A stretch of 64,000 bases of DNA, from assembly GCA_951406725.2 (NCBI GenBank), contig OX597820.1, positions 94,674,001 through 94,738,000 on the forward strand. Reading direction: 5' to 3'. A program made the translations under genes and the position numbers. Below, one piece after another: positions 1 to 55,675 of the stretch (positions are counted from its first letter, which is position 1; each line of letters begins with the position of its first letter). The notes under the pieces were generated by a model that saw only the letters and a program-made list of their open reading frames with translations, made no database searches and was not told the origin of the DNA. The DNA comes from Octopus vulgaris (taxonomy: Eukaryota).

Positions 1-2647
1 TTTATTTAAAAACAACTTTACTTTATATAATTGACATGGAGGACTATATATTAAGATGAAAAGATATGTGCTTTCCAATGAAAATCGTTTAATGCATTAG
101 CACTACCAACACCAATGGAAATGCAATGACATAACTATGATAAGTCTATTTCCCCCGTCTTAAACATCGAGGAAAGGAACATGACATATAATATTGGCAT
201 TTAATATCAAATGAATATTATTCGTTTCGTTGATTACATATTTTGAATTATGTGAAAAACACGACCTCCACATTGTTCAGAACGTACCCTCAGTTATTTA
301 CTTTAGAGACCAAGGAAGGCTTGATATTGGAATATACAGTAACGATAACAGTTTACTTTATACAGAATTACAATGTAATGCTTTTATCAGATATTTCTAG
401 ATATCCATTACCATTTTGTGTGCTATTTATCATACAAAAGTTATTAATAATCCAACATTAGCGCACCCAGATATAAAGACCGTTGTTTTTCATAGCGTTC
501 ATGTTGACACTGAATGATACATTTCTTTAACTGTTTCATATTCCTCCAAACCAAACATAACTATATCTATTTCTTTTACATTACGAATCTATATACTAAA
601 ACTATGTTTCCTACTGTAATTTATAAACACTTAAATTTCAATACTATTTAAATATGTCCAACAATATGCCGAATCTACAGGTATGTGCGTGCAACTTTCT
701 AATTACTTAAAATTCATACTTTCTAACATCGTAATTTTCATTATTACCAAATCTCCTAAAAATGATATCATTGATGATTACGGTAACTTATACTTTAGTG
801 TTTGACCAATGCTACAGGTAAAGTAAATAACAGATATGTATCAATATACAGCAACATACATCAATACTTATTGTTTCACGTAATTTTATAATATTTACAA
901 CGTTTCAAAACATAAATATATTCGTATCTTTTTAATAGTTCGTAATGAAAATATAAAGTGCTTCAAATATGGGCAGTGCTCGTGCAATTTTGTAGGAGAT
1001 CAATTCAATCTTTTACATTAGGCCAAATTGTTGAGCGTGACTATATTTTTCCGCCTGGCACAGGAGCTAATGCATTGATAATCTTGCCGGCATTTCAACG
1101 CATTCTAAAAAGGGACAGATGATGCTCAACTCAGTATTTTGGCCACACGTTAAATATTCTGTCAGTTGCTTACCTCAAGAATCTATCAAAAAACGATGAA
1201 TATTTTAATTGTAAAATTCATTGAAAATTAACTTATTTATATATGAGCATCACTTACATATAAAATACATATTATTATACAAACAAATCTAATTGCAAAT
1301 TCATATTCCGTAATAAATATTTGGAATATACTATATATCTTTTTATGATTACTCTAATAATTTCTGCAATCACTTCCTATCGTTTATTTAAAAACAACTT
1401 TACTTAATATAATTGACATGGAGGACTATATATTAAGATGAAAAGATATGTGCTTTCCAATGAAAATCGTTTAATGCATTAGCACTACCAACACCAATGG
1501 AAATGCAATGACATAACTATGATAAGTCTATTTCCCCCGTCTTAAACATCGAGGAAAGGAACATGACATATAATATTGGCATTTAATATCAAATGAATAT
1601 TATTCGTTTCGTTGATTACATATTTTGAATTATGTGAAAAACACGACCTCCACATTGTTCAGAACGTACCCTCAGTTATTTACTTTAGAGACCAAGGAAG
1701 GCTTGATATTGGAATATACAGTAACGATAACAGTTTACTTTATACAGAATTACAATGTAATGCTTTTATCAGATATTTCTAGATATCCATTACCATTTTG
1801 TGTGCTATTTATCATACAAAAGTTATTAATAATCCAACATTAGAGCACCCAGATATAAAGACCGTTGTTTTTCATAGCGTTCATGTTGACACTGAATGAT
1901 ACATTTCTTTAACTGTTTCATATTCCTCCAAACCAAACATAACTATATCTATTTCTTTTACATTACGAATCTATATACTAAAACTATGTTTCCTACTGTA
2001 ATTTATAAACACTTAAATTTCAATACTATTTAAATATGTCCAACAATATGCCGAATCTACAGGTATGTGCGTGCAACTTTCTAATTACTTCAAAAATTCA
2101 TACTTTCTAACATCGTAATTTTCATTATTACCAAATCTCCTATCTTCGTAAAAATGATATCATTGATGATTACGGTAACTTATACTTTAGTGTTTGACCA
2201 ATGCTACAGGTAAAGTAAATAACAGATATGTATCAATATACAGCAACATACATCAATACTTATTGTTTCACATAATTTTATAATATTTACAACGTTTCAA
2301 AACATAAATATATTCGTATCTTTATAATAGTTCGTAATGAAAATATAAAGTGCTTCAAATATGGGCAGTGCTCGTGCAATTTTGTAGGAGATCAATTCAA
2401 TCTTTTACATTAGGCCAAATTGTTGAGCGTGACTATATTTTTCCGCCTGGCACAGGAGCTAATGCATTGATAATCTTGCCGGCATTTCAACGCATTCGAA
2501 AGGGACAGATGATGCTCAACTCAGTATTTTGGCCACACGTTAAATATTCTGTCAGTTGCTTACCTCAAGAATCTATCAAAAAACGATGAATATTTTAATT
2601 GTAAAATTCATTGAAAATTAACTTATTTATATATGAGCATCACTTAC

Positions 2648-2668
2648 CTTTAATGTTGGTGGCAGTGG
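2648..2668 (-). CDS. Micro-exon copy (21 nt): (A)TATNIK; acceptor reads GG rather than AG (inactive or base error)
   Basis: aatatttccGG|CCACTGCCACCAACATTAAAG|GTAAGT. Confidence 0.5.
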
Positions 2669-4075
2669 CCGGAAATATTTAAAATACGTATTATTATACA
2701 AACAAATCTAATTGCAAATTCATATTCCGTAATAAATATTTGGAATATACTATATATCTTTTTATGATTACTCTAATAATTTCTGCAATCACTTCCTATC
2801 GTTTATTTACAAACAATTTACTTAATATAATTGACATGGAGGACTATATATTAAGATGAAAAGATATGTGCTTTCCAATGAAAATCGTTTAATGCATTAG
2901 CACTACCAACACCAATGGAAATGCAATGACATAACTATGATAAGTCTATTTACCTCACCGTCTTAAACATCGAGGAAAGGAACACGACATATAATATTGG
3001 CATTTAATATCAAATGAATATTATTCGTTTCGTTGATTACATATTTTCGAATTATGTGAAAAACACGACCTCCACATTGTTGCAGAACGTACCCTCAGTT
3101 ATTTACTTTAGAGACCATGGAAGGATTGATATTGCAATATACAGTAACGATAACATGCAGTTTACTTTATACAGAATTACAATGTAATGCTTTTATCAGA
3201 TATTTCTAGATATCCATTACCATTTTGTGTGCTATTTATCATACAAAAGTTATTAATAATCCAACATTAGAGCACCCAGATATAAAGACCGTTGTTTTCA
3301 TAGCGTTCATGTTGACACTGAATGATACATTTCTTTAACTGTTTCATATTCCTCCAAACCAAACATAACTATATCTATTTCTTTTACATTACGAATCTAT
3401 ATACTAAAACTATGTTTCCTACTGTAATTTATAAACACTTAAATTTCAATACTATTTAAATATGTCCAACAATATGCCGAATCTACAGGTATGTGCGTGC
3501 AACTTTCACAAACTCTAATTACTTAAAATTCATACTTTCTAACATCGTAATTTTCATTATTACCAAATCTTCCTAAAAATGATATCATTGATGATTACGG
3601 TAACTTATACTTTAGTGTTTGACCAATGCAACAGGTAAAGTAAATAACAGATATGTATCAATATACAGCAACATACATCAATACTTATTGTTTCACATAA
3701 TTTTATAATATTTACAACGTTTCAAAACATAAATATATTCGTATCTTTATAATAGTTCGTAATGAAAATATAAAGTGCTTCAAATATGGGCAGAGCTCGT
3801 GCAATTTTGTAGGAGATCAATTCAATCTTTTACATTAGGCCAAATTGTTGAGCGTGACTATATTTTTCCGCCTGGCACATGAGCTAATGCATTGATAAAC
3901 TTGCCGGCATTTCAACGCATACCGAAAAGAGACAGATGATGCTCAACTCAGTATTTTGGCCACACGTTAAATATTCTGTCAGTTGCTTACCTCAGGAATC
4001 TATCAATAAAGCGATGAATATTTTAATTGTAAAATTCATTGAAAATTAACTTATTTATATAAGAGCATCACTTAC

Positions 4076-4096
4076 CTGTAGCGTTGGTGCCAGTGG
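4076..4096 (-). CDS. Micro-exon (21 nt, phase 1-1): (A)TGTNAT, with N-glycosylation sequon
   Basis: aatattttcAG|CCACTGGCACCAACGCTACAG|GTAAGT; consensus splice sites. Confidence 0.82.
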
Positions 4097-5868
4097 CTGA
4101 AAATATTTAAAATACATATTATTATACAAACAAATCTAATTGCAAATTCATATTCCGTAATAAATATTTGGAATATACTATATATCTTTTTATGATTACT
4201 CTAATAATTTCTGCAATCACTTCCTATCGTTTATTTACAAACTACTTTACATAATATAATTGACATGGACGACTATGTATTAAGATGAAAAGATATGTGC
4301 TTTCCAATGAAAATCGTTTAATGCATTAGCACTACCAACACCAATGGAAATGCAATGACATAACTATGATAAGTCTATTTACCCCGCCTTAAACATCGAG
4401 GAAAGGAACATGGCATATAATATTGGCATTTAATATCAAATAGATATTATTCGTTTCGTTGATTACATATTTTGAATTATGTGAAAAACACGACCTCCTC
4501 ATTGTTCAGAATGTTACCTCAGTTATTTAATTAAGAGACCAATGAAGGCTTGATATTGGAATATACAGTAACAATAACAGTTTACTTTATACAGAATTAC
4601 AATGTAATGCGTTTATCAGATATTTCTAGATATTCATTTCCATATTGTCCCACATTGCTATTTATCATACATGTTGTCACTGAATGTTATCAACCGTTTA
4701 ATCCTCCAAGCCGAGCATTACCACATTCGAGCACCCAGATATAAAGAATGTTGTGATTCATAGCGTTCATGTTGTCACTGAATGATACATTACTTCAACC
4801 GTTTCTTATTCCTCCACGCCAAGCATAACTATAACTATTTCTTTTACATTATGAAACTATATACTAAAACTATATTTGCTAACAGTAATTCATAAACACT
4901 TAAACTTCAATACAATTTCAAAATGTACGACGATATGCAAAAACCTGCACGTATGTGCGTGCAACTTTCTAAGTACTTAAAATTCATACTTTCTAACATT
5001 GTAATATTCATTATTATCACATCTCCTAAAAATGATATTATTGATGATTACGGTAAGAGCTCTCGATAAAATATATTTTTCACAAACTCGGTCAGATTTC
5101 ATCACTCACAAAGTTTCTGGAAATTTCTATATTTCATGTCATTCATATAACCGTATATACTGCATCATTTCCTGAATCCTTTTTACATCCTACACATTTT
5201 CAGATCCAAATCGGATTAATTGTCTAAAATCTATTATTATTGCTGTCATCATCTTCCGTTCATTATACTAACCACATTCGAAACTGTGACATCATTTCCA
5301 TGTCAGTAGTAAATATTTATTAGAGATAATATTTGTAATGCATGTCATCTTTTGTTCCATAAAGTTTTACCAAAGTTCAAGCATTGTCACACAATAACTT
5401 ATACTTCAGTGTTTGACCAATGCAACAGGTAAAGTAAATTACAGATATGTATCAATATACAGCAACATACATCAATACTTATTCTTTCACGTAATTTTAT
5501 AATATTTACAACGTTTCAAAACATAAATATTTTCGTATCTTTATAATAGTTCGTAAGGAAAATATGAAGTGCTTCAAATATGGGCAGAGCTCGTGCAATT
5601 TTGTGGAAGATCAATTCAATCTTTTACATTAGGCCAAATTGTTGAGCGTGACTATATTTTTCCGCCTGGCACAGGAGCTAATGCATTGATAAACTTGCCG
5701 GCATTTCAACGCATACCGAAAAGGGACACATGACTGTCAACTCAGCATTTTGGCCACACGTTAAATATTCTGTCAGTTGCTTACCTCAAGAATCTATCAA
5801 AAAACGATGAATATTTTAATTGTAAAATTCATTGAAAATTAACTTATTTATATATGAGCATCATTTAC

Positions 5869-5889
5869 CTTGAATGTTGTTGGCAGGGG
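5869..5889 (-). CDS. Micro-exon (21 nt, phase 1-1): (A)PANNIQ
   Basis: aatatatccAG|CCCCTGCCAACAACATTCAAG|GTAAAT. Confidence 0.78.
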
Positions 5890-8114
5890 CTGGATATATT
5901 TAAAATACATATTATTATACAAACAAATCTAATTGCAAATTCATGTTCCGTAATAAATATTTGGAATATACTATATATCTTTTTATGATTACTCTTATAA
6001 TTTCTGCAATCACTTCCTATCGTTTATTTAAAAACTACTTTACTTAATATAATTGTCATGGAGGACTATATATTAAGATGAAAAGATATGTGCTTTCCAA
6101 TGAAAATCGTTTAATGCATTAGCACTACCAACACCAATGGAAATGCAATGACATAACTATGATAAGTCTATTTACCCCGCCGTAAACATCGAGGAAAGGA
6201 ACATGGAATATAATATTGGCATTTAATATCAAATAGATATTATTCGTTTCGTTGATTACATATTTTGAATTATGTGAAAAACACGACCTCCACATTGTTC
6301 AGAAAGTTACTACTTTATACAGAACTACAATGTAATGCTTTTATCAGATATTTCTAGATATCCATTACCATTTTGTGTGCTATTTATCGTACAAAAGTTA
6401 TTAATAATCCCTCATTAGAACACCCAGATATAAAGACTGTTGTGATTCATAGCGTTCATGTTGTCACTGAATGATACATTACTTCAACCGTTTCATATTC
6501 CTCCCAGCCGAGCATTACTATAAAAATTTCTTTTACATTATGAAACTATATACTAAAACTATGTTTTCTAACTGTAATTTATAAACACTTAAATGTCAAT
6601 ACTACTTCAAAATGGGCGACGATATGCACAATCTACACGTATGTGCGTGCAAGTTTCTAATTACTTAAAATTCATACTTTCTAACATTCTAATTTTCATT
6701 AATTTCACATCACCTAAAAATTATATCATTGATGATTACGGTTAGAGCTCTCGATAGAATATATCTTTCACAAACTCGATCAGATTTCATCATTCACAAT
6801 GTTTCTGGAAATTTCTATATCTCATGTCATTCATATAACCGCAAATACTGCATCATTACCTGAATCCTTTTCACATCCTACACATTTTCAAATCCTGCTC
6901 GGTTTAATTGACTAAACTCTATTGTTATTTCTGGCATTATCTTCTGTTCATAATACTAACCACATTCGAAACTGTGACAACATATCCATGTCAGTAGTAA
7001 ATATTTATTAGAGGAAGTATTTGTAATGCATGTCATCTTTTTTTCAGTGTTGTTTTGCCAAAGTTCAAATATTGATTTACAATAACTTATACTTCAGTGT
7101 TTGATCAAAGTAACAGGTAAAGTAAATTACAGTTATTTATCAATATATAGCAACTTACTTCAATACTATTTCAAAATGTGCGACGATATGCACAATCTAC
7201 ACGTATGTGCGTACAACTTTCTAATTACTTAAAATACATACTTTCTAACATTGTAATTTTCATTAATTTCACATCACCTAAAAATGATATTATTGATGAT
7301 TACGGTAAGAGCTCTCGATAAAACATACCTTTCACAAACTCGATCAGATTTCAACACTGAGAAAGTTTCTGGAAATTTCTACATCTCATGTCATTCATAT
7401 AACCGCAAATACTGCATCATTACCTGAATACTTTTTACATCCTACACCTTTTCAGTTCCAGCTCGGCTTAATTGACTAAACTCTATTATTATTTCTGGTT
7501 TTCTCTTCTGTTCATTATACTAACCACATTCGAAACTGTGACATTATATTCATGTCAGAAGCAAATATTTATTAGAGGTAATATTTGTAATGCATGTCAT
7601 CTTTTGTTCCATAAAGTTTTACCAAAGTTCAAATATTGATTTACAATGCCTCATTCTTCAGTGTTTCACCAAAGCAACAGGTAAAGTAAATTATAGATAT
7701 GTATCAATATATAGCAACATACATCAATACTTATTGTTTCACGTAATTTTATTATATTTACAACGTTTCAAAACATAAATATTTTCGTATCTTTATAATA
7801 GTTCGTAACGAAAATATGAAGTGCTTCAAATATGGGCAGAGCTCGTGCAGAGATCAATTCAATCTTTTACATTAGCCCAAATTGTTGAGCGTGGCTATAT
7901 TTTTCCGCCTGGCACAGGAGCTAATACATTGATAACCTTGCCGGCATTTTAACGCATACCGAAAAGGGACAGATGATGCTGAACTCAGTATTTTGGCCAC
8001 ACGTTAAATATTCTGTCAGTTGCTTACCTCAAGAATCTATCTATAAAGCGATGAATATTTTAATTTAAAAATTCTTTGAAAATTAACTTTAATTTATATA
8101 TGACCAACATTTAC

Positions 8115-8144
8115 CTTTTGCACTTCCAGGAAGTGGGCCAGTGT
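8115..8144 (-). CDS. Micro-exon (30 nt, phase 1-1): (D)TGPLPGSAK
   Basis: aatatttccAG|ACACTGGCCCACTTCCTGGAAGTGCAAAAG|GTAAAT; GC-rich island in AT-rich repeat. Confidence 0.8.
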
Positions 8145-9331
8145 CTGGAAATATTTAAAATATTTATTATTTTGTAAACATATCTGATTGCAAATTGATA
8201 TTCCGTAATAAAAATTTGGAATATACTATATATCTTTTTATGATTGCTCTAATAAGTTCTTCAATCGATTGCTATCCCTTATTTCCGTACTACTTTATAT
8301 ATTATAATTGACATGGACGATATATATTAAGATGAAAAGATATGTGGTTTCCAATGAAAATCGTTTAATGCAATAGCAATATCAACACCAAACTGGATGA
8401 GATTTCTTCACTTAAATCCATACTTTGTAACTTTGTAATTTTTATTATTATCTCCTCTCTTGAAAATAAATTCATTGATGATTACAATAAGAGTTCTTGA
8501 TGAAATATATCTTTCACATACTGGATGAGATTACTTCACTTACAATCTTTCTGGAAAACTCTATATTTCATGCCATTCGCATGACCGTAAATACTTTATC
8601 ATCAGCATTTCAATCAATCATTCACCTGAATATTATTACTCTTTACACAATTTCAGTTCTCGCTCTGCTTAATTATCTTAAATCTATTATTATTATTATT
8701 GGCTTTCTATTCTATTCGTTACACCGACCAATTCCGAAACTGGGAAATCATGAGGATTCTGATGTCAGTAATAAATATTCATTAGAGACAATATTTGTGA
8801 TATATGTCATCGTTTCCACATAGTTTTCCCAAAGCTCAAAAAATTGTTTTACAATAATTTATTCTTCAGTGTTTTACCAAATCAACACGTAACATTTTTT
8901 GTAGTTAATTTCATATCTGTATCAATATATAGCAACATACATCAATACTTATTGTTTGACTCCATTTTATAATATTTAAAACATTTCAAAACATAAATAT
9001 TTTCGTATTTTTATAATAGGTCTTAATGAAAATATGAATTGCTTCAAATATGTGCACAGGTCCAACAATTTTGTGGAAGATACTGTTCAGTCGTTTACAT
9101 TAGCCCATATATTTAAGTGTAACTTTATTTTACCCCCTGGGACATGAGTTATTGCAATGATAATCTCGGCGGCATACAGAAAAGTGACAGAACACGAACT
9201 GCTAAGTATTTTGTTCGACGCGTTCAATATTCCGTCAGGTAGTTACCTCAAGAATTTATCAATTAAACGATGAAGATTTTAATTATAAATTTCTTTGATT
9301 ATTAACATATTTATATAAGAACATAATTTAT

Positions 9332-9360
9332 CTTTTGCAGAGGTTTTATTAGCAGCAATG
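9332..9360 (-). pseudogene. Dead micro-exon (29 nt, donor GT>AT); restored frame (G)IAANKTSAK
   Basis: atatttctAG|CATTGCTGCTAATAAAACCTCTGCAAAAG|ATAAAT at the homologous repeat position. One base short of 30, donor mutated. Confidence 0.6.
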
Positions 9361-11166: not shown

Positions 11167-11196
11167 CGTTTGGAAGTCCATTAGTACTGGTTACGC
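11167..11196 (-). CDS. Micro-exon (30 nt, phase 1-1): (C)VTSTNGLPN; completes the signal peptide
   Basis: tatatttctAG|GCGTAACCAGTACTAATGGACTTCCAAACG|GTAAAT. Joined to exon 1 gives TGC (Cys) and a T-N-G/L-P cleavage site. Confidence 0.8.
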
Positions 11197-12799
11197 CTAG
11201 AAATATATAAAATACATATTATTATAGAAAGTATATCGGATTGCAAAGTCATTTTTCATAATAGATATTATGAATATACAATATATCCTTTAATGCTTGC
11301 TCTAATAACATCTTCAATGGCATGCTTTCCTTTCATCTCGAGATGAGAAAATATCTGGTTTCCAATGAAAATCTTTTTAATGAATTAATGATCCTATCAG
11401 CACTATTTCAATGGCAAGGACATAGGTTTTTTAAGGTTATTTACCTTATCTTAAACATCGCAAAAAATACACACGCAATATATTATAGTTATTTAATATA
11501 GAATAAATATTATTAGATTTGTAATTACTTAATTTGGATTATATGGAAGACATGACATCAATACCTATTGGTTGGCAATATTTCATAATATTTACATTTT
11601 AAAACAAATATTTTCGTATTAGCATAATAGTTCGTAATGAAATTGAGAATTGCTTTAAATATCACAGCCCACCAGACTCAAGACACAAGAAATATTTTCT
11701 CAAATTGCTGCAGGATTTTCTTTCTTTCTTTTTTTTAAATATCATTGAGTGAATGACTGCTTCCCACACATTGTGCGACGCTAGATTCATGAGAAATATT
11801 TAAACCTTTCACCAAAATCCAATGAGTGTGAGAACACACCTTGCTGCCATGCTCCTGTACTAGAAATAGAAATGCTTGCATTCGTAAACGCCATTCTTAA
11901 TACCAAAGGATAGACAGTGTTTACAGAGTGCAGTTTTTCTTCCTTTCAGAGACATGATGTCAATGTAAATAATAGATATTATTAAAGACAACGTGTGTAA
12001 TGTACGTAATTTACTGTTCCACGTAGTTTTCCCTAATTTCAAATATTGATTTATAATAAATTGCACTTCAGTGCTCTAACCAAAACGCCAGTTAACTTTC
12101 TTTTAAAGTAATTTTCAGCTAGGTATTAATATATAGCAACATACATTGATACTAATTGTTTGGTATTGCTTAAAATAATTCCGTACAAGGCCAGGAAGAA
12201 TGAGAGGTAGCGACGTGAGACAGAGTACAGAGAAATAGAGCTCGTTTGAATGGATAATTTTAATGTTGTGAGAGAACGAACATTTTTTTCATTTTCCTGC
12301 AAGTTCTTTCTTCACAGATGCCACTGTGCGAATATCCGGTTCCAAATAGTACATTATGTCTTGTAGGAATCATTAGAATATTTTGAGATTTTATATTAGC
12401 AAGAGTATGCTATCTTAATCCTCATAATGTTTTAAGGAACACACCTTGCTACTGCGTTTCTGTACAAAGTTTTTTTCCATGGATTCATTCCCTTCCTAAC
12501 ACCATCGGGTATACTAATTCATTTTATCACAATTTTTCTTGGCACCAGTGAAATAGTTTGCCTCGTCTTAGTCATACCTCAAAAGTCCTCGCATCCCTGC
12601 ATGGTCTTTGCTCGAACTTTGAACATTTCGCAGCTGATACAGATTACACTTTTTACCTGTCACAAGCGCTTTGGAGTTTGTCTCACCTTCTGCAACACGA
12701 TTCTGGCGTGTGTACTGGGTGCTTTCTCCCGTTGTGTGTGTTTGCTGAAATTGCTGAGCGGAGTGACAATCATGTCATGAAAAACTGCAAAAACTATGG

Positions 12800-20937: not shown

Positions 20938-21043
20938 TGTATGTATGTATGTATGTATGTATGTATGTATGTATCCATATCTGTAATAGAAAGTGCTAGT
21001 TTAGTGAAATAGTAAAAAAAATAGTATATCACACGATACTCAC

Positions 21044-21089
21044 ATGAAACTATGGCCACAACGACGATGAGAAGATATATAGTCTTCAT
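21044..21089 (-). CDS. First coding exon (signal peptide) of a putative secreted micro-exon gene: MKTIYLLIVVVAIVS + T (phase 1)
   Basis: Minus strand AAACATC ATG AAG ACT ATA TAT CTT CTC ATC GTC GTT GTG GCC ATA GTT TCA T|GTGAGT. A at -3, basic n-region, hydrophobic h-region, consensus donor. Confidence 0.85.
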
Positions 21090-21140
21090 GATGTTTACTT
21101 CAGAAAGTCAACGATCACAATAAAGCGGAGACTAATTTTT

Positions 21141-21155
21141 TTATTATATATATAT
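21141..21155 (-). promoter_or_regulatory. Candidate TATA box of the micro-exon gene
   Basis: ATATATATATAATAA about 52-66 nt upstream of the ATG. TA runs are very common here, so weak. Confidence 0.35.
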
Positions 21156-21278
21156 GTTCAGTGTTATCAAAGTGTTGATATAACTAAGATTATTGCTATT
21201 GGTTACGTAAGTTCTTCTGTACGAAATACTTTCCGGGGGATACAGAATTAGTTATAAACAAACAAATAAATAGTGTTT

Positions 21279-32290: not shown

Positions 32291-32478
32291 GAAAGACTTT
32301 GCAAACTGTTACTCAGGGTTACACTTAACAGATTCTGCCCGAAAATTATTACGCTAAACATGCACTTGTCGGTGGAATACTCATCCACTTCATACGCTAC
32401 TTCATGAAGTAGGTGGGAGTAATAGATCAAATAGCTGGACAGTCAAATATCGAATTTAACATTGTATACGTGTGTGTT

Positions 32479-32557
<79 letters not shown>

Positions 32558-32614
32558 GGACAGATAGATAGATGGATGGATGGATGGATGGATGGATGGA
32601 TGGATGGATGGATG

Positions 32615-32693
<79 letters not shown>

Positions 32694-32754
32694 GGGTGGA
32701 TGGATGGATGGATGGATGGATGGATGGATGGATGGATGGATGGATGGATGGATG

Positions 32755-32837
<83 letters not shown>

Positions 32838-32838
<1 letters not shown>

Positions 32839-35238
32839 CTGCCAGTTGCAGTATACTGCTGCCAAGACGTCTCCAAACAAGTCTGGCATACAATTGCACA
32901 ACTCGTAGGGCAGACCATCCAAACCCGGCGATTTGTCTCTCGAGCATTCTGCCATCGCGTCCCGCACATCCGCCGCCGTGATGGCACCTTCGCAGCACTC
33001 TGCCTCTCTTGCCGAGAGTCGTGGTAGGCTGTGCAGGTAGGCTGTGCAGGTAGGCACTGAAGTCCACCCTGCGTTCACGCTCACCACTCGTCCCGTACAG
33101 TCGGGCAAAGTACCGCTGAAATGTCTCGCACATCTTGCTGAGCTCGAGCAATTCGTGCCCTTGTTCATCTACCAGAGACCGAATGGTGGCTTTGTTGCCC
33201 TGTTGCGCCTCCGCCACCCGGGCCTCCCTCGCGGCTCCAACACCTTCCATCCTTAGAGCACGCATCCTAGCCCTGACAGCAGACCCTTCGTGTTTGGCGT
33301 TGAAGTGTTGGTCAAGGGCCAACCTCCCTGCTAAAACGTCGGATGTGATGCCGCTTCTTATTGCCTCTTCTAACTTCTTAACTAACTCACCCTCTACTAT
33401 ATTTCTATCTACGGCTAGTGCCTTGCTATATCTAATTGCTTCCGCTTTTACTGCTCTCTTGAGGGCGAACCACCATTTGTTGTTGACAATGGCTCCCGTT
33501 AAAGCCCTTTTTACTAACGTGTTGATTCTGTCTCTGGACGGGAATGATGCGTTCAGTTTCCAGTAACCAGGACCCTGTCTATGTGCCTTATCTAAGTCTA
33601 GCGTACACGTCACGAATTTGTGATCCGTGTAGCTGACTGTGTGGAATTGTGGACATCCTAAGTTATCCCTGTCTACTGTCCTACACAGTATCCTATCTAG
33701 ATACGATCTCGACGACCCACTGCGGTTGCTCCATGTCCACGTTGGTGCATTTGGGTGGTCAAGTCGGTACCTGTCAGACAGTTGGAATCGTCTGAGCAGG
33801 TCTCTGAGGCATTTGCATCCCCTTCTGTTTTTGTCTCTCCCCACATAGTCTAGATGCGTGTCCAAGGTAGCATTCCAATCCCCCACTAAAAGTAAAGGAC
33901 GAGACGTTCCCAGGAATACTTCTAGACGTCGAAAGAAATCCGGCCGACCTGTTAAAGGCGGTGCGTAGACTGATACGAGTCGAAAAGCGCACCCATTGTT
34001 GCCGTCGACATCCAGAACGACCAGTCTACCCTCCGGGTCTACGAATATCGTCTTGACTTCGAGATCCAGGCTCTTGTGAAAAAGTACCGCGGTGCCACTA
34101 CCGCCCATCCTCGGCAGACAGGGAGCAAAATAAATGTTAAACTGTCCGCCAAACATGGACTTTAGGGCCCGTGAGTCTGGTCTCACTTATGGCTATGATT
34201 CCCAAATCGTGTGACTTGATGTCATTTAGGAGGTATCCTTGTTTCCAAGGAGACCCCAACCCATGCGCATTCACACAACCAATCTTGACCATGATTCTAT
34301 AGGGGTGTGTGCTTTAAAACACAAAAAGGAAAGTACAGAGAGTTACTTACTTGTGTCGAAAGTTTTGGCTTCCTCATTCTTTGATGTGTCTTGGAGGAGG
34401 TTTTTATCGAGTTTTTGTGACAGGTATTTTTGGAACCCCCCAACAGCATTTGGAAAGAGGGCTTTGAGTGTGTGGTGTTGTGTTTGTGTGGTGTGTAGTA
34501 TTTTGATGTGTTTGGGTGGTGTAGTGCGTGGATGGTTGTTAGTTTTGAAGTCATCTTCACAGATGTTTGTGTGGGCTGTGATGTACTCCATTAGTTTGGA
34601 GTCTTTTGTGTCTATCGCTGATAGCATTGTGTGTGTTTTTGTGGTGTTGGTGCTTGTTTGGTTGTGTATGGAGCTTTCAGGGTTCAGGTATCTCCCTGCT
34701 TAGGTTGTGTTTTCTTGTTTGTTTTTTTTTATCTTTTTCTTTTACCCCCGGTGGCTATTTGCCATTCTGTCGAACTTTCATCGTTAGATGAAAAGTCTGA
34801 CGAATCAGCAGGGGGTAAGGGTAAAGCATCTGGGTCTGTTTGTGCGGTTGTAGATATTGTTGTGGTGTGCGGGGGGGGCGGTTGCGGGAGGGTTTGGTGT
34901 GGTGATTGTCTCTCCTACATCCTTGGTGCTTGTCTTCTTCGTTGTTGTTCTCGGTGTTGGAATTGGTTTAGTTGGTGTTGGTGGTGATGGTTCTGTTCTT
35001 GGCACAGGTGCTGGTGTTGTTTGGTTGGGTTGGTCCGTTCTTTGTTGCTTTTCATGCATTTTTGCATATAGATTCTTGATTAGCCGTCCATACTGTGGTG
35101 TGGGCAATAATGCTGGCTTTTGTGGTTTTTCCTGTGGCTGTTGTTGTTGTTGTTTCGCGGCAGATTTACACTCCTTTTTGAGGTGAGTTTCACTGCCGCA
35201 TGTATAGCAGCGTGGCCTTCTGCCATCGACTACTACAT
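32838..35238 (-). mobile_element. L1/Tx1-clade LINE internal fragment (ORF1 zinc knuckle, APE endonuclease, start of RT) bracketed by (GATA)n
   Basis: ORF1 [14 protein letters not shown]; ORF2 [45 protein letters not shown]. Confidence 0.92.
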
Positions 35239-38759: not shown

Positions 38760-41700
38760 AGTGACATATTTCGTGAAAAAAACCTTAAAAGTCAAATTTA
38801 TTTTGTGCTGAATGATACAACAAATTCATTAGGAACTGACTGGATGGAATTATTTAACTTATGGGACCTCCTCATAAATCTTCTGTAAAAATGTGAATGG
38901 TTCTTCGTCTGGTACAAAAAAGTCGTCAGACGAATCGAAAAATTTTTTAATATTTTTCCTGAGGTTCTGTCTGATAAATTAAGTTTGTGCACCAAAACAA
39001 CGGTTTCAGATAAAAGAAAACGCCATACCGACATTTAAACAAAAACGAACGGTACCCTTCGCAGTGTTAGAACAGATAAACTTAGAGAGACTAGAAAAAA
39101 TTGGAGTTATCCAGAAAGTGGAATATAGTCAACGGGCATCACCAACTGTGTACATTAATAATAAGAACGATAAAATCAGAGTGGGTGTTGATTTTTCCGC
39201 TGGTTTAAACATATGACTTAAAACGTGCACTATCCACTACCTACTCCGGAAGATATTTTTGCGAAATTAAACGGTGGCAGGATATCTTCTAAATTAGATC
39301 ACTCTGATACGTACCTACAAATTAGAGTAGACGATTGATGCTCTAAACACCTAACAATTAGCACATATAAAGAACTGTATAAATGCAACAGGTTAACATT
39401 TGGCTTAAAAGTCGCACCTCCGATTTTTCAACAGATTATGGATACAAGTTTAGTGGACTGTGAATTCAGAATTCCATATCTGGATGATATACTCATTAAA
39501 AGCGAATCCAGGGATCAACACGTAGAGCACGTAAAATATGTATTCGAAAAAGTTAGAGATTACGTCTTTACTTTGAGTGAAGAAAAGTCTGAAATTTTCT
39601 TACCAGATCCGTCGAGGGTAGATGTAATTAAAAATATGCCCACTCCGACAAATATAGCTATCTTAAAAGCATGTTTAAGACTGGAAAATTATTACCCAAA
39701 TTATATTCCAAATACGCATAAGGTGAGGGTTCCACTGAATAACCAGCTGAAAAAAGATAAGAAGTGGGATTGGTCTGAAAATTGTCAAAAGTCATTTGAC
39801 GAAATAAAACAAAATATTAATAATAACCGATTTGTCGTTAGCACACTTCTATCCTGCGGCGGAGATTGTTGTAGCTTCAGACACTTCTGAGTACGGTGTA
39901 GGAGTAGTAATGCTACATAAATATAAAGATGGTAGCATGAAGGCTATGGTTCATGCTCCATATTCTTTGGTATCAGCAGAGAAAAATTAAAGCCAAATCG
40001 AAAAAGAAACTCTAGCGATTATATTTGCTGTGGAAAAATTTCTCAGAAATTTTCCTCTACAGACTGATCATCGTCCGTTATTATATGTATTTGGGTAAAA
40101 GAAAGGAATCCCTACCCATACTGCTAACAGGTTGCAACGCTGGGGTACGATATATTTTGAACTATATTTTCAAGATAGAGTATATACCATCCAAGAAATC
40201 AGATCACGCTGATTGTTTATCAAGACTGATTTCAAAAAGTGCTGAACCATTTGAAGAGATAGTGTTTGCTGCTTTGAGAGCGGAAAATGAAATAAAAAAT
40301 GTTTTGTGTAACGTCATATGTGAACTGCCAAGACATGAAATTAAAATCGAAAACCGATAAATTCATTTTTAAAAGAGAGAAATACTGAAGGTTAAAAGAG
40401 ATAAAGATATGCGCAACACAAACGTGAACCATTTCTGAATGTGTGACAATGTACGCACAAAGAGTTGTAGTACGAGTCACACTACAAAAGCAATACTGCA
40501 TTTATTAAAGGAATTTCATATTGGTCACCCAGAGATTTCGAGAATGAAATCGTTAATGAGAAGTTATGTATATTGGCCGACGATGGACCATGACATTGAA
40601 GAATTAGTGGAAGCATGAAAAGGGTGTGCCTTAGTTGCGAAAGCACCTACCACTAAGTGGCAACAGTGGTTAAAATCATACGTTTCAAGGGCCAGGCTGC
40701 ATGTTAATTACGCAGGTCCTCCTAAGGGTTCATATTATCTTGTGATAGAGGGTTTTTCAAAGTGGACGGAAATGCATAAATGTAAAAAGCCGACATCTGT
40801 GGTTACAATAATTTTTTTACACGAATTGTTCGCCAGGTATGGTCTTCCTGATATCATTGTGTCTGATAAGGGAACTCGGTTTACGTCAAACGAGTTCAGA
40901 CGAGTTCGAAAATTCCTAGGTCAAATAGACAAGCGGAGCAATTTGTTGACACATTCAAGAGGGCGTTGAAAAAAGGTGAACAATAAAGTGATGGACGATT
41001 TTGTATTTCAACAATTTCTAAGGGTGTACCGAGTAACACCTAATACATCATCATCATCATCATCATTGTTCGACCGTAGTCGAGACAATGGAATTTACCA
41101 TGCTACGCCAGACTTCGCGGTCCATCATGGCATTACGGAGGTCCTGTTGCTGGATGCCTGTATCCCTGGAGATTACATCAGGGTAGGAGAGTGTGCGCCT
41201 TCTGGTATTGCGAGTAGATGGCTTCCAGAGGAGAAGAGTAGAAATTACCTCTTTTTCAGCTCTACAACAATGTCCAGCAAACTGGACTCTCCTACCTTTC
41301 ACAATACGAATACACCGTCGGGAATGTCACGTGCAGAATTGATGCTTGCAGAATTGATGCTTGCTAGAAAGGTCAGATCTGCCTTTGATAAGCTGATATC
41401 GAGTGGAAATTTATTAAAAAAAATAAGAGGCAAACAAAATTGCATCAAAAACTTTAAAGTTTGGTGACAAAGTTTTTTTTTAAAAAAAAACTATAGATAT
41501 GGTAAAGAAAGCTAGGAGGACGGTGTAATTATTAAACAAATTGGAAGAATGTTATTCCTGGTAAAAAGAAAACATGTCGAATATAAAAGACATATTAACC
41601 AGATAAAAAAAAAATTACGGACAAAGCAGTCAAGAGAAATGAAATCTCCAAGGAAGATTTTTGTAGGACATGTTTGAGGTACCAACATGCAAGGAATTTG

Positions 41701-42134: not shown

Positions 42135-45100
42135 ATAAGTTTCTTTATTGGCCACACAGGGCTGCACACAGATGGGACAAGTTACAAGGTAGAGCTTTTC
42201 TTTTGGGGGATGAAAAAAACAAAAAACAAAAGAAACTAAAAAAAAAGGGAGTGGCGTAGGTTTTCGATCAAGAGGGATCGTAAAATGGAAGAATAGAACA
42301 AAAAAAAATAAATAAAATTAAATTTTAAAAAAAGAAAAGGAAAAGGAACAAAAGAAAAGAGAAATGAAAAAAGAAGGAAAAAGGGGAAAAAAAGGGGAAG
42401 AGGAAAAAAAACGATCAATAGGGATCGTGTTTCACAGTGTTATGATATATGGTGTAAAGGGGAAAGCAAGTAAGGTTTATCCGTGGGAAGGAAAGCCTAC
42501 GAAAAAGACCACGGTAACCTTGGTCAATATTGTTATATGTTACCACATTTGTTTGCAAGTGGGTAACCCTCTGTTTTCAATTTCTGGGTTCATAGGATTA
42601 TGCTCAAGGTGGCTTCGTCATTCATACGTGCCATCCTTGCTACATTTACCCATATTTTTTTAAAACATTCGCTAGACAAAACTTGCCTCTCTACTCTCAC
42701 TTTCCTTTTCAAGTGGTACTTGAAGAAGTTGATGAGAGGTTGACCAGAGAGGAAAGTGTTTGTCTCCAATCCTTTCAGACGCGTCCACCAGATACATTCT
42801 TTCGCCATAGCCACAAGGATGATGAAAATAGCTCTTCCTTCCCGTTTGAAGGAAGGGGGCGTGACAATATTGACGATAGACTCAGTTGATAAACCGACTC
42901 GTCCCACACGTGACAGCAGTTGTTCGACATAAGGTGTACAAAACTCAACGAGACCGAGCCGTGAAAATCGAAAAGAAAGAACGCTTCAGTTATGAATACA
43001 AAATCGCTGCAAATGCCAGTAGCAATCCAAAAACCTTCTTTGCCCATGTCCAGCGGAATTCCCGCTTGAACAACCAGATTGTAACGTTGGTAGACTCAAC
43101 AGGCGTATCGATTGAGGACCCTTATCAACAGAGTCAATTATTTGCCGAGGCTTTTTCAACTATTTTCAAACAAGATGATGGTCGTGAACCCCCTCCATTT
43201 GATAGATCGGTACCTCCAATGCTTCGATTGGTCATCACGCGGGACGAAGTCAAACGTGTTATTCAAGGCCTCGATGTCAACAAGGGTCACGGCCCTGACG
43301 GCATACACCCACGGGTTATCAAAGCGTTGGCTCCGGTCATCTGCGAGCCCTTAACACGACTATTCAATATGTCATTGGCGACGGGTGTTATACCTGCACA
43401 CTGGAGAACAGCGATAATCTGCCCAATTTTCAAGAAAGGGAGCCGCGAAGACCCGCTTAACTACCGACCGGTTTCCCTTACATCAATAATTAGCAAGATG
43501 TTCGAAACCATCCTTAAGAAAAGTATGATGCTCCACCTCCTAAACACAGCCTCTATCTCTGATTCCCAACACGGCTTCGTGCCGAAGAGATCATGCTTGA
43601 CCAACTTACTAGTAGTGGAAGAATTGGTGACGCGCATCCTCGATGATAGTGATGCTGTTGACATCGTTTTACTGGACTTTGCCAAAGCTTTTGACTCGGT
43701 AAACCACCGCCTATTACTTGTCAAGCTTCAAGCATATAGTTTCCATCCGGATATTGTACGATGGGTTGGTGCCTTCCTCTCAGATCGCTCCTTCCAAGTC
43801 CAAGTTAATGGTTCGCGGTCCGACGTCTCCAGTGCGAGCAGTGGCGTGCCTCAAGGTTCAGTGCTTGGGCCCTTGTTGTTCTTAGTCTTCATAAATGACT
43901 TGCCCGACGACCTCACGCAACACACCCTTCTATTTGCCGACGATATCAAACTGGTCGCTCCTCGCGGTAATATAGAGGATCTTCGTCGATGCCTCCACCA
44001 AATTTGGAAGTGGTCTAACGATTGGGACCTGTGTCTGAACGTGTCAAAGTGCTGTCATCTGCCTGTCGGCTCTACTCCTGCAACTCAACTTGATTTCGAG
44101 CCGGATCGTCTGCTGCTGGAGAGGACCGATCAGGTAAAGGACCTAGGTATTTTGGTAGATTCCTCCTTTTCGCCTTCGGCCCAGTGCGTCCATGCTGCCA
44201 ACAAAGCACGCGGAATTCTGTTCTTGATTCGACGGTCATTCGGAATGCTCACAGCAGCCATATTCCTACCACTCTATGTCACGCTGGTGAGACCCATATT
44301 GGAGTATGGGATTCAAGCCTCTTCTCCTTATCTCCTCAAAGACATACAGCATCTCGAAAGAGTCCAGAAGCTGGCTACCCACATGGTTCATGGTCTCAAA
44401 AATTTGTCCTACGAAGAAAGGCTGAGGACGCTCGACCTTTATTCTCTTGAAAAACGCCGCCGCCGTAGTGATCTCATTCTCGCCCACAACATCATAAGCG
44501 GAAAGTGTAACCTCTCGAAAGAGCTGTTCTTCACTCCTGCTCCAGAGCGTCGGCTGCGGGGTCATTCCGAAAAGCTCTACCTGCGACGATTTCATCTCAA
44601 TCGAAGGAGACGAGCTTTCTCCGTCCGGGTTGCGGATCCGTGGAACAAGCTGCCAGACGAGATGGTGAAGATGCCGACGACCGCTTTGTTCAAAGCCTCC
44701 CTGGACCTCAAGTGGCCTGAACTCTTTACATGAACACCACCCTGTACTTAACTCCATGTCCCCCTACATGGCCTTGCTATTTGCTTTTGAGCCAAATTAA
44801 CTAACTAACTAACTAACTAACTAACATAAGCCCACAGGTCGGAAATTGTTGGACACTGCACGAGTGCGTGCAGAACGGTTTCGTCGCTCTGACCGCATCT
44901 CGGGCAGGTCGGCCCCGTGTTTCTCGAGCCGTGTCTGTAGAGCTTATCCCGAACGGGTAGCGCTTCTCGGTAGCACTGCCAGGTCAGGGATCTCTGGAAG
45001 TTGTCCATGGGCCCTGGCCCGAAAGTCGTCCGGAATAGGCGGGTCCGGTACTCCTCGTCGATGTCCAGGTTCGCCCCGAGCTCGTCGTCGTACCTCCCCT

Positions 45101-46090
45101 CCACTAATCCCCTATAGAATGCTTTGGTTGTGATGAAGTCACTCAAGGTCGACCCAGGACGGCAGAGTTGCTTGAGAGCAACGCGACACTCGCGGTGCCA
45201 TTCGCCCTTCCTCGGCCTCTTTTTGATCCACGACTGCAGTTCGGTCATGGAGACGAGCTGCGGGAAAGCGTGCCTCACAAACGGCGACCACACCTGTTCA
45301 CCGTCGTCTACGAAGAGCCTGAGATGTCGCAGTCTCAGCGCGTGTCTGTGCATCATCAATTACGGCATGCCCAGTCCTCCTTTTAACGGGTGTTGACAGC
45401 AAATGGATCGCCTGACCATCGGGACGCATCCTTTCCACAAGAAGCGAAAGAGAATGCGTTCTAGTTTGGTGATGGTAGGGTCGGGACAAGGTACGACGGT
45501 CAGGCGGTAGTAGATGACGGACGCGATGTACGTGTTCGCCACCTCCGCCCGACCTTTTAGGGACAGTTTCCTCTCGGCCCATTGCCGGGTGAGAGTGACC
45601 ACCCTACTCGTTATCTCGTTCCAGTTCTTCTCCACTTGGAGGTCCGGACCAAACCAGACCCCGAGCAACTCAACCGGGCCGTCGGTCCAGCGTCCCACGA
45701 CGGAGGCGCTGGTGGACGGCATGGGCTTGCTTCTCCAGGTGCCTAGTCGCAAGCCCACTGACTTTTCCCGGTTGATTTTCGCTCCTGTCACCGCTTCGTA
45801 GTTTTTCAGTGTCTCGCCGACCTGCTCGATGTGCTCGTGGCTAGACACTATGACGGTGACGTCGTCCGCGTATGCAGACACGCTCGTCCCGCATCCCAGT
45901 TCTCGCGGGATGCCCCTCAAAGTTGCCAGCTTCCGCAATAATGGCCCGAGAGTCAATACGTATAGACGCGACGATGTCGAAGGATCTCGATAGATGTCCA
46001 TTCATGCGAATTACCGAACGGATGCCTCTGTACAAAGCGGCTATCCAGCCGCGGAAGACGGGACCGAAGCTAGCCGCTCTGAGGACCGCC
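42135..46090 (-). mobile_element. 5'-truncated L1/Tx1-clade LINE (RT, CCHC, 3' UTR), split by a CR1 insertion
   Basis: AYADDVTV, GAKINREKS, GGLGMP, CPRCGQSDETVLHALVQC, IWWTR; AATAAA at the 3' end; 5' junction with (TATC)n. Confidence 0.92.
42934..44823 (+). mobile_element. Young 5'-truncated CR1-clade LINE with an uninterrupted RT frame
   Basis: About 600 aa open frame to 44733: GPDGIHP, NYRPVSLTS, QHGF, DFAKAFD, SGVPQGSVLGP, FADD, KDLG. (TAAC)n tail; TSD ACATAAG at 42927-42933 and 44824-44830. Confidence 0.95.
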
Positions 46091-46334: not shown

Positions 46335-46374
<40 letters not shown>

Positions 46375-46385
46375 TATATAGAAGG

Positions 46386-46436
46386 AGCTTCTACAGGACT
46401 AGAACTGTTTCATTCAAGAGAAATCTTCAGGAAGCT
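46386..46436 (-). ncRNA. Hammerhead ribozyme (left arm)
   Basis: Reverse complement of 50395-50445. Confidence 0.75.
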
Positions 46437-46922
46437 AGTTAACAAGAATTGTATTGGCATTTATACATTTAGGCAGGTTTAAAGGGGTGTTGGTGGGGGA
46501 CTTTTTGGAGGTAGGCATAGCGCAAAATATCATACTTGGGGGAGTGGTCAAGGAGTCAGTGTTAAATTAGATAGAAGAATAAATAAAAAATTAAAAAAAT
46601 TAAAAAATATATATATATAAAAAAAGGGGGAATAGAGTTTTAGGTAAATAAGGAGATTCTCACTTATACCTATGCACATATGTATACATATATACACACG
46701 CATACAAACATATATACATATACATACACACATACATACACACACATATATATATACATATATATACACTTACATATACACACAGAAAAATATATATACA
46801 CATACACACACATACTCACATACACGCATACACACACAAATCCACACACACACATGCACACACAGCACTAGTCCCTATATACACATATATACACATACAC
46901 ACATATATACACACACATACAT

Positions 46923-46970
<48 letters not shown>

Positions 46971-47379
46971 GTGTACCTATGCATACCTACACATACACAC
47001 ATATATATATACACATACAAATACAGACCCATTCCCTAATTTTAATTTTATTATCTTCGTTTATTACTTTTGTTATCTTTGGCCGCTTGGTCACAAACAT
47101 CTTGGCTATGACAGCCAGTCCATTTATCTGTCTACTGGAAAACAAGCACTCATTCACTCACGCACACTCTTTAGCACGTACACTCACTCATTCGTACACT
47201 CATACACATACACGCACGCACGCGTTATATTCATACATACATACATCTACATACATTCACGTATATACACATACGTACGCGTACCTACAGATTCATGTCT
47301 ACACTCTTAGAAGGCTAGTCTATACATATACACCAATAAATATAAATACACACACATACACGTACACCTACATACAAAT

Positions 47380-47431
<52 letters not shown>

Positions 47432-48072
47432 TCACATATATATACACATATATACATACATATACAAACACACACATATATACACATATACACACATATA
47501 CACATATATACACACATACACATACATACATATACACACATACACATACATACGTATACATACATACATACATCCATACATCCATACATACATACATTTA
47601 TACACATACACACACCCACATACATACATATATATACGCGCATATATATATCTATATATATATATATACATATACATATATACATATATACATATATATT
47701 CATACACACACATACATATACATACATACATATACAAATATACGCACACACATACATACATACTCATATACTCATACACGCACATACACATGTACATCGT
47801 ACCCATACACACACACACACACACGCGCGCATCCATATATACACATAAGTACACCCATGCGTAAAAGTATACATATATCTATGCTTACACATACACACAC
47901 ACACACGCGCCTCCTTATATTCATACTTACATGCATACTCAAAAATAAGTAAATAGTAACATATATATACGCGCAGTTATTCATACATGCATACTCAAAA
48001 AATAAATAATAAATATTAAGTATATGTACGTGCAGTTACCTATTATATAGACGGATACATACATATAAACTT

Positions 48073-48123
<51 letters not shown>

Positions 48124-48582
48124 CATATATACACATATATATATACACATACACACATACATACATATATATATACACACACACACATACACATATATAT
48201 ATATATATATATACATACTTACACATGTACATATAAATACACACATAGATAACTCTACGTACCTACATATATATGTATATATGTATATATATGTGTTTGT
48301 GTGTGTGTGTGTATGCATGTGTGTATGTGTATGTATGTATGTATATATATGCGTGTGTATGTGTATGTGTATATGTACATATACGCGTACGCTCGTGTGT
48401 TTATGTATATGTAGGTACGTAGAGTTATCTATGTGTGTATTTATATGTACATGTGTAAGTATGTATATATATATACTTTGATACTTTGATACTATATATA
48501 TATATATATATATATGTGTATGTGTGTGTGTGTATATATATATGTATGTATGTGTGTATGTGTATATATATGTGTATATATG

Positions 48583-48641
<59 letters not shown>

Positions 48642-49029
48642 AAGTTTATATGTATGTATCCGTCTATATAATAGGTAACTGCACGTACATATACTTAATA
48701 TTTATTATTTATTTTTTGAGTATGCATGTATGAATAACTGCGCGTATATATATTTTACTATTTACTTATTTTTGAGTATGCATGTAAGTATGAATATAAG
48801 GAGGCGCGTGTGTGTGTGTGTATGTGTAAGCATAGATATATGTATACTTTTACGCATGGGTGTACTTATGTGTATATATGGATGCGCGCGTGTGTGTGTG
48901 TGTGTATGGGTACGCATGTACATGTGTATGTGCGTGTATGAGTATATGAGTATGTATGTATGTGTGCGTATATTTGTATATGTATGTATGTATATGTATG
49001 TGTGTGTATGAATATATATGTATATATGC

Positions 49030-49060
<31 letters not shown>

Positions 49061-49281
49061 GATATATGTATGCGCGTATATATATGTATGTATGTGGGTG
49101 TGTGTATGTGTATAAATGTATGTATGTATGGATGTATGGATGTATGTATGTATGTATACGTATGTATGTGTATGTGTGTATATGTATGTATGTGTATGTG
49201 TGTATATATGTGTATATGTGTGTATATGTGTATATATGTGTGTGTATGTATGTGTATGTATATATGTGTATATATATGTGA

Positions 49282-49331
<50 letters not shown>

Positions 49332-49740
49332 ATTTGTATGTAGGTGTACGTGTATGTGTGTGTATTTATATTTATTGGTGTATATGTATAGACTAGCCTT
49401 CTAAGAGTGTAGACATGAATCTGTAGGTACGCGTACGTATGTGTATATACGTGAATGTATGTAGATGTATGTATGTATGAATATAACGCGTGCGTGCGTG
49501 TATGTGTATGAGTGTACGAATGAGTGAGTGTACGTGCTAAAGAGTGTGCGTGAGTGAATGAGTGCTTGTTTTCCAGTAGACAGATAAATGGACTGGCTGC
49601 CATAGCCAAGATGTTTGTGACCAAGCGGCCAAAGATAACAAAAGTAATAAACGAAGATAATAAAATTAAAATTAGGGAATGGGTCTGTATTTGTATGTGT
49701 ATATATATATGTGTGTATGTGTAGGTATGCATAGGTACAC

Positions 49741-49802
<62 letters not shown>

Positions 49803-50394
49803 ATGTATGTGTGTGTATATATGTGTGTATGTGTATATATGTGTATATAGGGACTAGTGTGCTGTGTGTGCATGTGTGTGTGTGGATTTGTGTGTGTATG
49901 CGTGTATGTGAGTATGTGTGTGTATGTGTATATATATTTTTCTGTGTGTATATGTATGTGTGGTCGTGTGTGTATATATACATGTGTGTATACGTGTATG
50001 CATGTGAGTGTGTGTATGTATACATATATGTGTATGTGTAGATATGTATATGTATGTGTAAGTGTATATATATGTATATATATATGTGTGTGTATGTATG
50101 TGTGTATGTATATGTATATATGTTTGTATGCGTGTGTATATATGTATACATATGTGCATAGGTATAAGTGAGAATCTCCTTATTTACCTAAAACTCTATT
50201 CCCCCTTTTTTTATATATATATATTTTTTTATTTTTTTTATTTTTTATTTATTCTTCTATCTAATTTAACACTGACTCCTTGACCACTCCCCCAAGTATG
50301 ATATTTTGCGCTATGCCTACCCCCAAAAAGTCCCCCACCAACACCCCTTTAAACCTGCCTAAATGTATAAATGCCAATACAATTCTTGTTAACT

Positions 50395-50445
50395 AGCTTC
50401 CTGAAGATTTCTCTTGAATGAAACAGTTCTAGTCCTGTAGAAGCT
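50395..50445 (+). ncRNA. Hammerhead ribozyme (right arm), type I
   Basis: AGCTTC-CTGAAGA-TTTC tctt GAAT-GAAA-CAG ttctagtc CTG-TA-GAAGCT; 6-bp stem I, GUA cleavage after 50439. Confidence 0.75.
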
Positions 50446-50528
50446 CCTTCTATATAATAAATTAATTTTACTCTGCTATGTATTGAGTACCTTATTTACT
50501 GTGGTTAACCCCGAATCAACCCGGGACC

Positions 50529-55286: not shown

Positions 55287-55347
<61 letters not shown>

Positions 55348-55568
55348 TCAATATAGGGTGGCAAAAAAAATTTTGTAGAATTCTTTTGCCACCAGCGGCC
55401 TAGTGGGAAAAAATTAAATAGTCATAAACCATTTTTAAGTTCAACATCACAATCAAGGAACGGCCATAATAGGCCATTCACCCACTAGAAATAACAGCCA
55501 AAAGCTTTAACCGCAAAATAACATCAATTCCGTAAACCAGGAGAAAATTAAAAAACATTTACCCTGTA

Positions 55569-55675
55569 ATTTCTTAGACGATGCACCGTTTCATCTACCG
55601 TTTAATGGTAAACTAACCTGATTAAATTAAATCAAGCCAATCCACCATAGGCCCTTAGACTCATCAGTAAGAAAT
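55569..55675 (-). ncRNA. Hammerhead ribozyme, copy 1
   Basis: Reverse complement of 56236-56342. Confidence 0.8.

Follow-up and report, generated by a model that had tools for sequence, protein, structure and literature searches.

A candidate micro-exon gene for a mucin-like surface protein in Octopus vulgaris, with exons that diverge faster than their homogenised introns

Introduction

The polymorphic mucins of Schistosoma mansoni (SmPoMuc) have been described as genes built of tandem units of about 1 kb, each with one 27-bp exon, whose introns are more than 93% identical; several gene copies exist, which differ in unit number and are partly truncated, and their introns are homogenised while differences between exons persist (PMC2576457). 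Schistosome micro-exon genes (MEGs) place up to 75% of their coding sequence in very small symmetric exons, and exon-skipping isoforms have been demonstrated for them (PMC4350168, PMC4015677); according to one of these accounts, the MEG families are apparently restricted to platyhelminths (PMC4350168). A third design is the CD24-type precursor of about 80 residues, which consists of a signal peptide, a short Ser/Thr-rich core and a GPI tail (PMC10740697). Finally, the repeated introns of Argiope MaSp2 are homogenised with a higher-order period, and the authors of that account were aware of no further gene in which two homogenised intron types alternate (PMC9779670).

The octopus locus described here combines features of all four. 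As in SmPoMuc, its units (1.35-1.8 kb) carry one 21-nt exon each within flanks that are 91-99.7% identical, multiple gene copies with homogenised introns are present, and the same two-part account has been given there (PMC2576457). In contrast to SmPoMuc as presented in that source, exon types are mixed within one array with a three-unit period, replacements exceed expectation where the SmPoMuc paper invokes purifying selection, the protein is predicted to end in a short GPI-type tail rather than a 234-residue C-terminal region, the units are not separated by microsatellites, and the carrier is a large-genome animal that is not a known parasite; furthermore, SmPoMuc introns hold a hammerhead ribozyme, whereas a search of 104 kb here gave no Rfam match, hammerhead included (PMC2576457). 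With MEGs the locus shares the location of most coding sequence in small symmetric exons (81% of the predicted 570-nt coding sequence of gene copy 1, and 55% in copy 2, lie in exons of at most 36 nt), a predicted signal peptide, a secreted or membrane-anchored plan, and a mature part that changes faster than the signal peptide; unlike those of the MEGs described, the octopus micro-exons all descend from one duplicated exon-plus-intron unit (PMC4350168, PMC4015677). It resembles CD24 in its small precursor (copy 2 predicts 82 residues), Ser/Thr-rich core, and predicted signal and GPI tail (PMC10740697). Similarly, it shares periodic homogenised introns with MaSp2, with three in rotation in the octopus array, but its exons are tiny and more divergent than the introns, whereas those of MaSp2 are large and homogenised together with the introns (PMC9779670). 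The likeness to all of these genes is one of design, and homology to none of them was detected. We know of no micro-exon array in CD24, unlike the locus studied here, whose glycosylation is putative.

Results

Structure of the predicted gene

The analysed window is a stretch of 64,000 nucleotides (C7:94674001-94738000), and coordinates below zero denote DNA to its left. The predicted gene lies on the minus strand, and its features are given below from its 5' end, with the array itself preceding the two exons to the left of the window.

21090..21161, minus strand: probable 5' untranslated part of exon 1, drawn tentatively from the extent of a single contig in one putative-RNA run
21044..21089, minus strand: first coding exon, 46 nt, an open reading frame with ATG, hydrophobic signal peptide and phase-1 donor GTGAGT
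11167..11196, minus strand: 30-nt phase-1 micro-exon, the putative second exon
9332..9360, minus strand: dead 29-nt micro-exon, with donor AT, not GT, in all three gene copies
8115..8144, minus strand: 30-nt phase-1 micro-exon, with 4 differences from gene copy 3, all amino-acid-changing
5869..5889, minus strand: 21-nt micro-exon that opens the array and forms a divergent island
4076..4096, minus strand: 21-nt micro-exon, one base off the commonest type
2648..2668, minus strand: 21-nt micro-exon with the broken acceptor GG, the acceptor AG being absent
1251..1265, minus strand: array unit that has lost its exon and acceptor (about 29-30 nt) and retains the donor
1..8400, minus strand: right-hand part of the exon-plus-intron array, units of 1.35-1.8 kb
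C7:94647544-94647579, minus strand: 36-nt exon with a Gly/Ser/Ala run
C7:94642096-94642160, minus strand: last exon, with hydrophobic tail and stop

The array continues for about 16 kb to the left of the window, where 11 more 21-nt exons are followed by three 30-nt exons, the 36-nt exon and the last exon. The 21-nt class thus comprises 15 units, of which 14 hold an exon (11 of these left of the window), and is flanked on both sides by older related units with 30-nt exons. An earlier note had described three 21-nt copies, which we confirm on the minus strand at 2648-2668, 4076-4096 and 5869-5889; it had missed the GG acceptor of the first, which is probably skipped, and the exon loss in the unit at about 1257. 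The single base that separates 4076..4096 from the commonest type creates an N-glycosylation sequon.

AG/GT ends and a length that is a multiple of three (21 or 30 nt) are kept in 18 of the 20 candidate micro-exons of copy 1. Phase 1 is the sole frame that is stop-free in all 18, stops being present in 8 of them in phase 0 and in 2 in phase 2. Since the exons are symmetric, duplication, loss or skipping of a whole exon-plus-intron unit leaves the reading frame intact. Exon 1, the 18 intact micro-exons, the 36-nt exon and the last exon together predict a stop-free protein of 189 residues, with a signal peptide, a Thr/Ala/Pro-rich stalk and a GPI-type tail. A hydrophobicity scan found hydrophobic windows only at the two ends of the protein, consistent with a plan of signal peptide and membrane anchor. 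The middle 139 residues contain 32% Ser+Thr (29% Thr), 17% Ala, 14% Pro and 11% Asn, and neither Cys nor aromatic residues.

A GPI signal combines an anchor site of small residues, a polar spacer and a terminal hydrophobic tail without a cytoplasmic part. The last two exons (33 residues) follow this order, with the Gly/Ser/Ala run in the 36-nt exon, a polar spacer and a 20-residue hydrophobic end, directly followed by the stop. From these features we infer the joining of the predicted exons, GPI addition and glycosylation.

Two 15-nt exon-like pieces (11840-11854 and 12445-12459, minus strand) form a duplicated pair with AG and GT ends that is kept in all three gene copies. Both were rejected as the second exon, as each leads to a stop when joined to exon 1; they could be dead or poison exons.

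Transcript and homology searches

One contig of a putative-RNA run (X2) spans 21043-21161 and leaves the genome sequence at the predicted exon-1 donor, with its last two letters mismatched. It carries the copy-2 base at window position 21101 and hence comes from copy 2 or an allele. The exon-1 stretch was searched in four runs, three of which gave no cover, and these searches yielded no splice joint and no transcript over any micro-exon. For the last exon and its 3' flank, 20 of the 24 sequencing-run rows hold part of the sequence, none of them recorded as RNA.

No internal exon exceeds 36 nt, and such genes therefore escape annotation and homology search. Single-exon queries of 32 and 40 residues, which are weak because only 16-20 residues of each are exon, matched none of 1.84 billion representative proteins. 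Similarly, single-exon frame queries gave none of 33 candidates at E <= 10 and no Pfam family, and flatworm MEG families were unmatched. In the open-access literature, no account of a comparable cephalopod gene was found.

Exon and intron change in the array

The three 21-nt copies in the window vary exactly at positions 3, 7, 10, 15, 16, 18 and 19, as had been claimed. Phase 1 is their only stop-free frame, which places all seven sites at first or second codon positions. Exon divergence above that of the intron, the central claim of the earlier note, is borne out, with variable columns at 7/21 exon against 31/576 flanking intron positions (Fisher p=1.5e-4; flank of 250+330 nt), and not one of the 546 intron windows of the same width contains as many as seven variable columns among the three copies. 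The contrast persists in the 11 units left of the window, where 8 changes in 21 exon nt face 66 in 576 intron nt (3.3-fold, p=0.012), so that the first refuting condition of the earlier note, exon divergence equal to that of introns once more units are counted, does not hold. For all 14 exons of copy 1 the counts are 14 changes in 21 nt against 75 in 573 (5.1-fold), and for 16 exons including those of copy 2 the minimum is 19 in 21 against 98 in 573 (5.3-fold, p=3e-7); the p values of these array-wide counts are those after a 1.24-fold composition correction for higher exon mutability. CpG decay was rejected as the main cause of exon change, since a CpG is involved at no more than 4 of the 15 variable positions.

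Other parts of the earlier description require adjustment. "Hypervariable" suits the three copies and overstates the array as a whole, as the 14 exons fall into 7 sequence types and nine of them belong to just two (six identical copies, and three others identical to each other). The third codon positions are invariant in the three copies, whereas 3 of the 7 vary among 14. The intron had been said to differ only at scattered bases, which does not hold, as units are 0.3-8.6% apart and contain mosaic blocks.

The evidence for an excess of replacements within the array is mixed. The absence of synonymous change in the three copies (0/7) has a chance probability of 0.05-0.11 and is not significant. 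When synonymous changes were sought among more units, as the earlier note had proposed, the 11 left copies gave 3 of 8 changes at third positions, as expected by chance and with no replacement excess, and this second refuting condition is thus partly borne out. By parsimony, 2 of 15 steps are synonymous among the 14 exons of copy 1 (p=0.07-0.19) and 3 of 23 among the 16 exons including copy 2 (p=0.02-0.10, borderline), against an expected share of 0.27-0.34 in both cases; these counts presuppose a tree, an assumption broken by recombination. Splicing signals may constrain the third positions. When the five 30-nt exons of copy 1 were compared with one another, differences occurred at 108/200 first and second positions (54%), at 29/100 third positions and at 366/1974 flank positions (19%), as summed by hand over 10 non-independent pairs.

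Recombination between units

Unequal crossover and conversion homogenise the introns and spread exon types in the array. The array contains a three-unit repeat of 4.51 kb with spacings of 1348, 1753 and 1412, which is seen as a 13.5-kb self-match at a shift of 4515 nt with 223 mismatches. Between the units at 5869 and -1501 there are 11 differences in 601 sites, and a 32-nt segment covering the exon together with its splice sites contains 10 of them. Conversely, the units at -3255 and -12281 are identical in the exon and downstream flank and have 18 upstream differences. Such exon islands and mosaic introns imply that the array exons in part predate their introns.

These observations raise the possibility, which we consider doubtful though real, that the contrast is a recombination patchwork without positive selection, in which exons predate their introns and the stalk is under relaxed constraint. 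Conversion tracts would begin in the long intron homology and end at the mismatch-rich exon, with third positions held by splicing enhancers or codon bias. Consistent with this, the exon islands include splice-site bases (5869 vs -1501), synonymous changes separate the two main 21-nt types, the exons at -16007 and -18037 differ at 3 of 10 third positions with flanks 3% apart, and the 11 left array copies lack a replacement excess. On the other hand, array neighbours apart, no donor of the variant exons within 3 mismatches was found in the 264 kb examined. The single-copy exons examined below, which have no known older donor, nevertheless show 15 changes that are all replacements and partly stepwise, and the dead 29-nt exon, located in the same kind of unit, shows no excess.

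Gene copies and their surroundings

Searches of the 2.8-Gb genome revealed three gene copies (three matches of the last exon and two of exon 1) and no array unit outside this cluster, apart from one chance-level match on C18 (E=0.29). The two further copies are located at distances of 150 kb and 100 kb. Copy 2 differs from copy 1 by 0.65% over 41 kb, has two 21-nt exons and an identical exon 1, and predicts 82 residues. Copy 3 is about 2% divergent and inverted, and has lost exon 1 by a deletion that ends in an ATAC microsatellite (L012:8890-8900). It retains five intact micro-exons, two of which are of types absent elsewhere (30 and 33 nt). In copy 2, a 30-nt exon at C7:94503430-94503459 has the donor CT instead of GT.

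The region C7:94458000-94742600 is a nested segmental duplication, in which copies 1 and 2 are direct (0.5-0.8% apart) and copy 3 is inverted between them. Sequence lying upstream of copy 1, at window 33-64 kb, recurs in inverted orientation at 94603-94623 kb. Within the duplication, the block of the 21-nt array (C7:94503229-94507591 vs window -16200 to 6300) is 6-9% divergent between copies 1 and 2, while its flanks differ by 0.5-0.8%; this block would be accounted for if the copies had lost different old unit types, or by a balanced polymorphism of long standing.

The window also contains an inverted repeat of about 3.8 kb (46369-50462), which is 90% identical including microsatellite tracts, and retroelement pieces at 32456-34186, 39339-41000, 42880-44733 and 45360-46001 with matches to endonuclease, reverse transcriptase and integrase, among which one reverse transcriptase open frame covers 617 residues. 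At 55340-56354, a 365-nt direct duplication (99.7% identity) adjoins a 153-nt perfect inverted copy.

A locus of this kind might be an array that is decaying or was never spliced, or its copy structure might partly be an assembly artefact, with copies 1 and 2 as serial haplotypes and the array length mis-assembled. We give this very little credence. The broken acceptor at 2648, the deleted exon at 1257, the dead exon at 9332, the lack of exon 1 in copy 3, the mere 0.65% between copies 1 and 2 over 41 kb and the lack of a protein match in any search would fit it; yet 18 of 20 micro-exons keep AG/GT ends, lengths of 3n and one open frame from signal peptide to tail, and the 328 kb spanning all three copies contain no N. 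If copies 1 and 2 were alleles, the exon contrast would survive as polymorphism.

Probable selection in comparisons of whole-gene copies

Selection is best supported by data from beyond the array, in single-copy exons compared between gene copies that are 0.65-2.1% apart. Four live stalk-side exons (126 nt) show 15 changes where 3.6 are expected from their flanks (p=6e-6), 11 of them resting on copy 3, which lacks exon 1 and is a possible pseudogene. None of the 15 is synonymous (p=0.010-0.014); for one of them, which falls in a split codon, the identity of the first codon base is an assumption. Copies 1 and 2 alone differ by 4 changes in 96 nt (p ~0.008, calculated by hand for a background of 0.65%). 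The exon at 11167..11196 has 3 amino-acid-changing differences among the three copies against 0-2 in its 400-nt flank, and one codon passes stepwise from P to Q to K across the copies. One pair was excluded from these counts, -18037 against the donor-broken, non-orthologous copy-2 exon, whose flanks are 8% apart and where 1 of 3 changes is synonymous.

The coding sequence of signal and tail has no change in 111 nt between gene copies, which differs from the stalk (Fisher p=5e-5) and is not significant when taken alone (p=0.16). The dead exon (9332..9360) serves as an internal neutral control, with 1 change against 0.7 expected. Taken together, these small counts statistically support positive selection on the stalk. 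The earlier note had proposed diversifying selection or homogenisation of introns as alternatives; both have left marks, with a borderline replacement bias in the array and stronger support for selection from the single-copy exons.

The same controls bear on the idea that local hypermutation or codon-sized slippage in the C/A-rich, internally repetitive exons produced the pattern with no need for selection. A/C changes account for 6 of 19 types in the 21-nt exons and for 8 of 98 in introns, several codons carry two differing bases, and exon lengths of 21, 30 and 33 nt indicate that codon-sized indels occur. However, composition predicts a mutability only 1.24-fold higher, none of the 18 live exons of copy 1 contains a stop, and such a process would be expected at third positions and in the dead exon as well, where it is not seen between gene copies; we regard it as highly improbable.

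Discussion

We favour, with reasonable though incomplete confidence, the reading that this locus is a micro-exon gene for a small O-glycosylated, GPI-anchored mucin-like protein, in which selection on the stalk acts together with homogenisation of the introns. Each stalk piece of 7 to 11 residues would be a frame-safe cassette encoded by one symmetric phase-1 exon. Unequal crossover and conversion would alter unit number, maintain the similarity of the introns and distribute exon types, and positive selection would favour residue change in the exposed stalk while the signal and anchor exons stay fixed. New stalk residues may alter charge and the sites of O- and N-glycosylation. Given selection, there is about an even chance that the driver is a pathogen whose adhesin, lectin or protease is evaded or decoyed at a blood cell or an epithelium. 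A role in gamete recognition is considerably less probable, some other cause is less probable again, and tagging of self and non-self is the least probable of the four.

A bolder reading, which we think unlikely, is that schistosome-style micro-exon diversification arose independently in a free-living mollusc, with positively selected exons on a GPI-anchored surface tag forming a recognition code. Unequal crossover would then reshuffle the exons from one individual to another, and combinatorial skipping would vary them inside cells, resulting in an individual- or cell-specific code for immune, gamete or self/non-self recognition. If this were true, the 6-9% divergent array block would be a long-kept balanced polymorphism.

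The whole gene is more interesting than the three exons alone. Exons that outrun homogenised introns are a known pattern, in which selection and recombination are hard to separate; the present locus carries its own controls, namely a dead exon, signal and anchor exons that stay fixed, unit classes both young and old, and three copies of the gene. If the favoured reading is correct, it would place a design of the MEG and SmPoMuc type outside parasitic flatworms, and its micro-exon architecture hints at an arms race played out on the cell surface. The gene would thus be a candidate fast-evolving surface molecule in cephalopods, a group with few such candidates.
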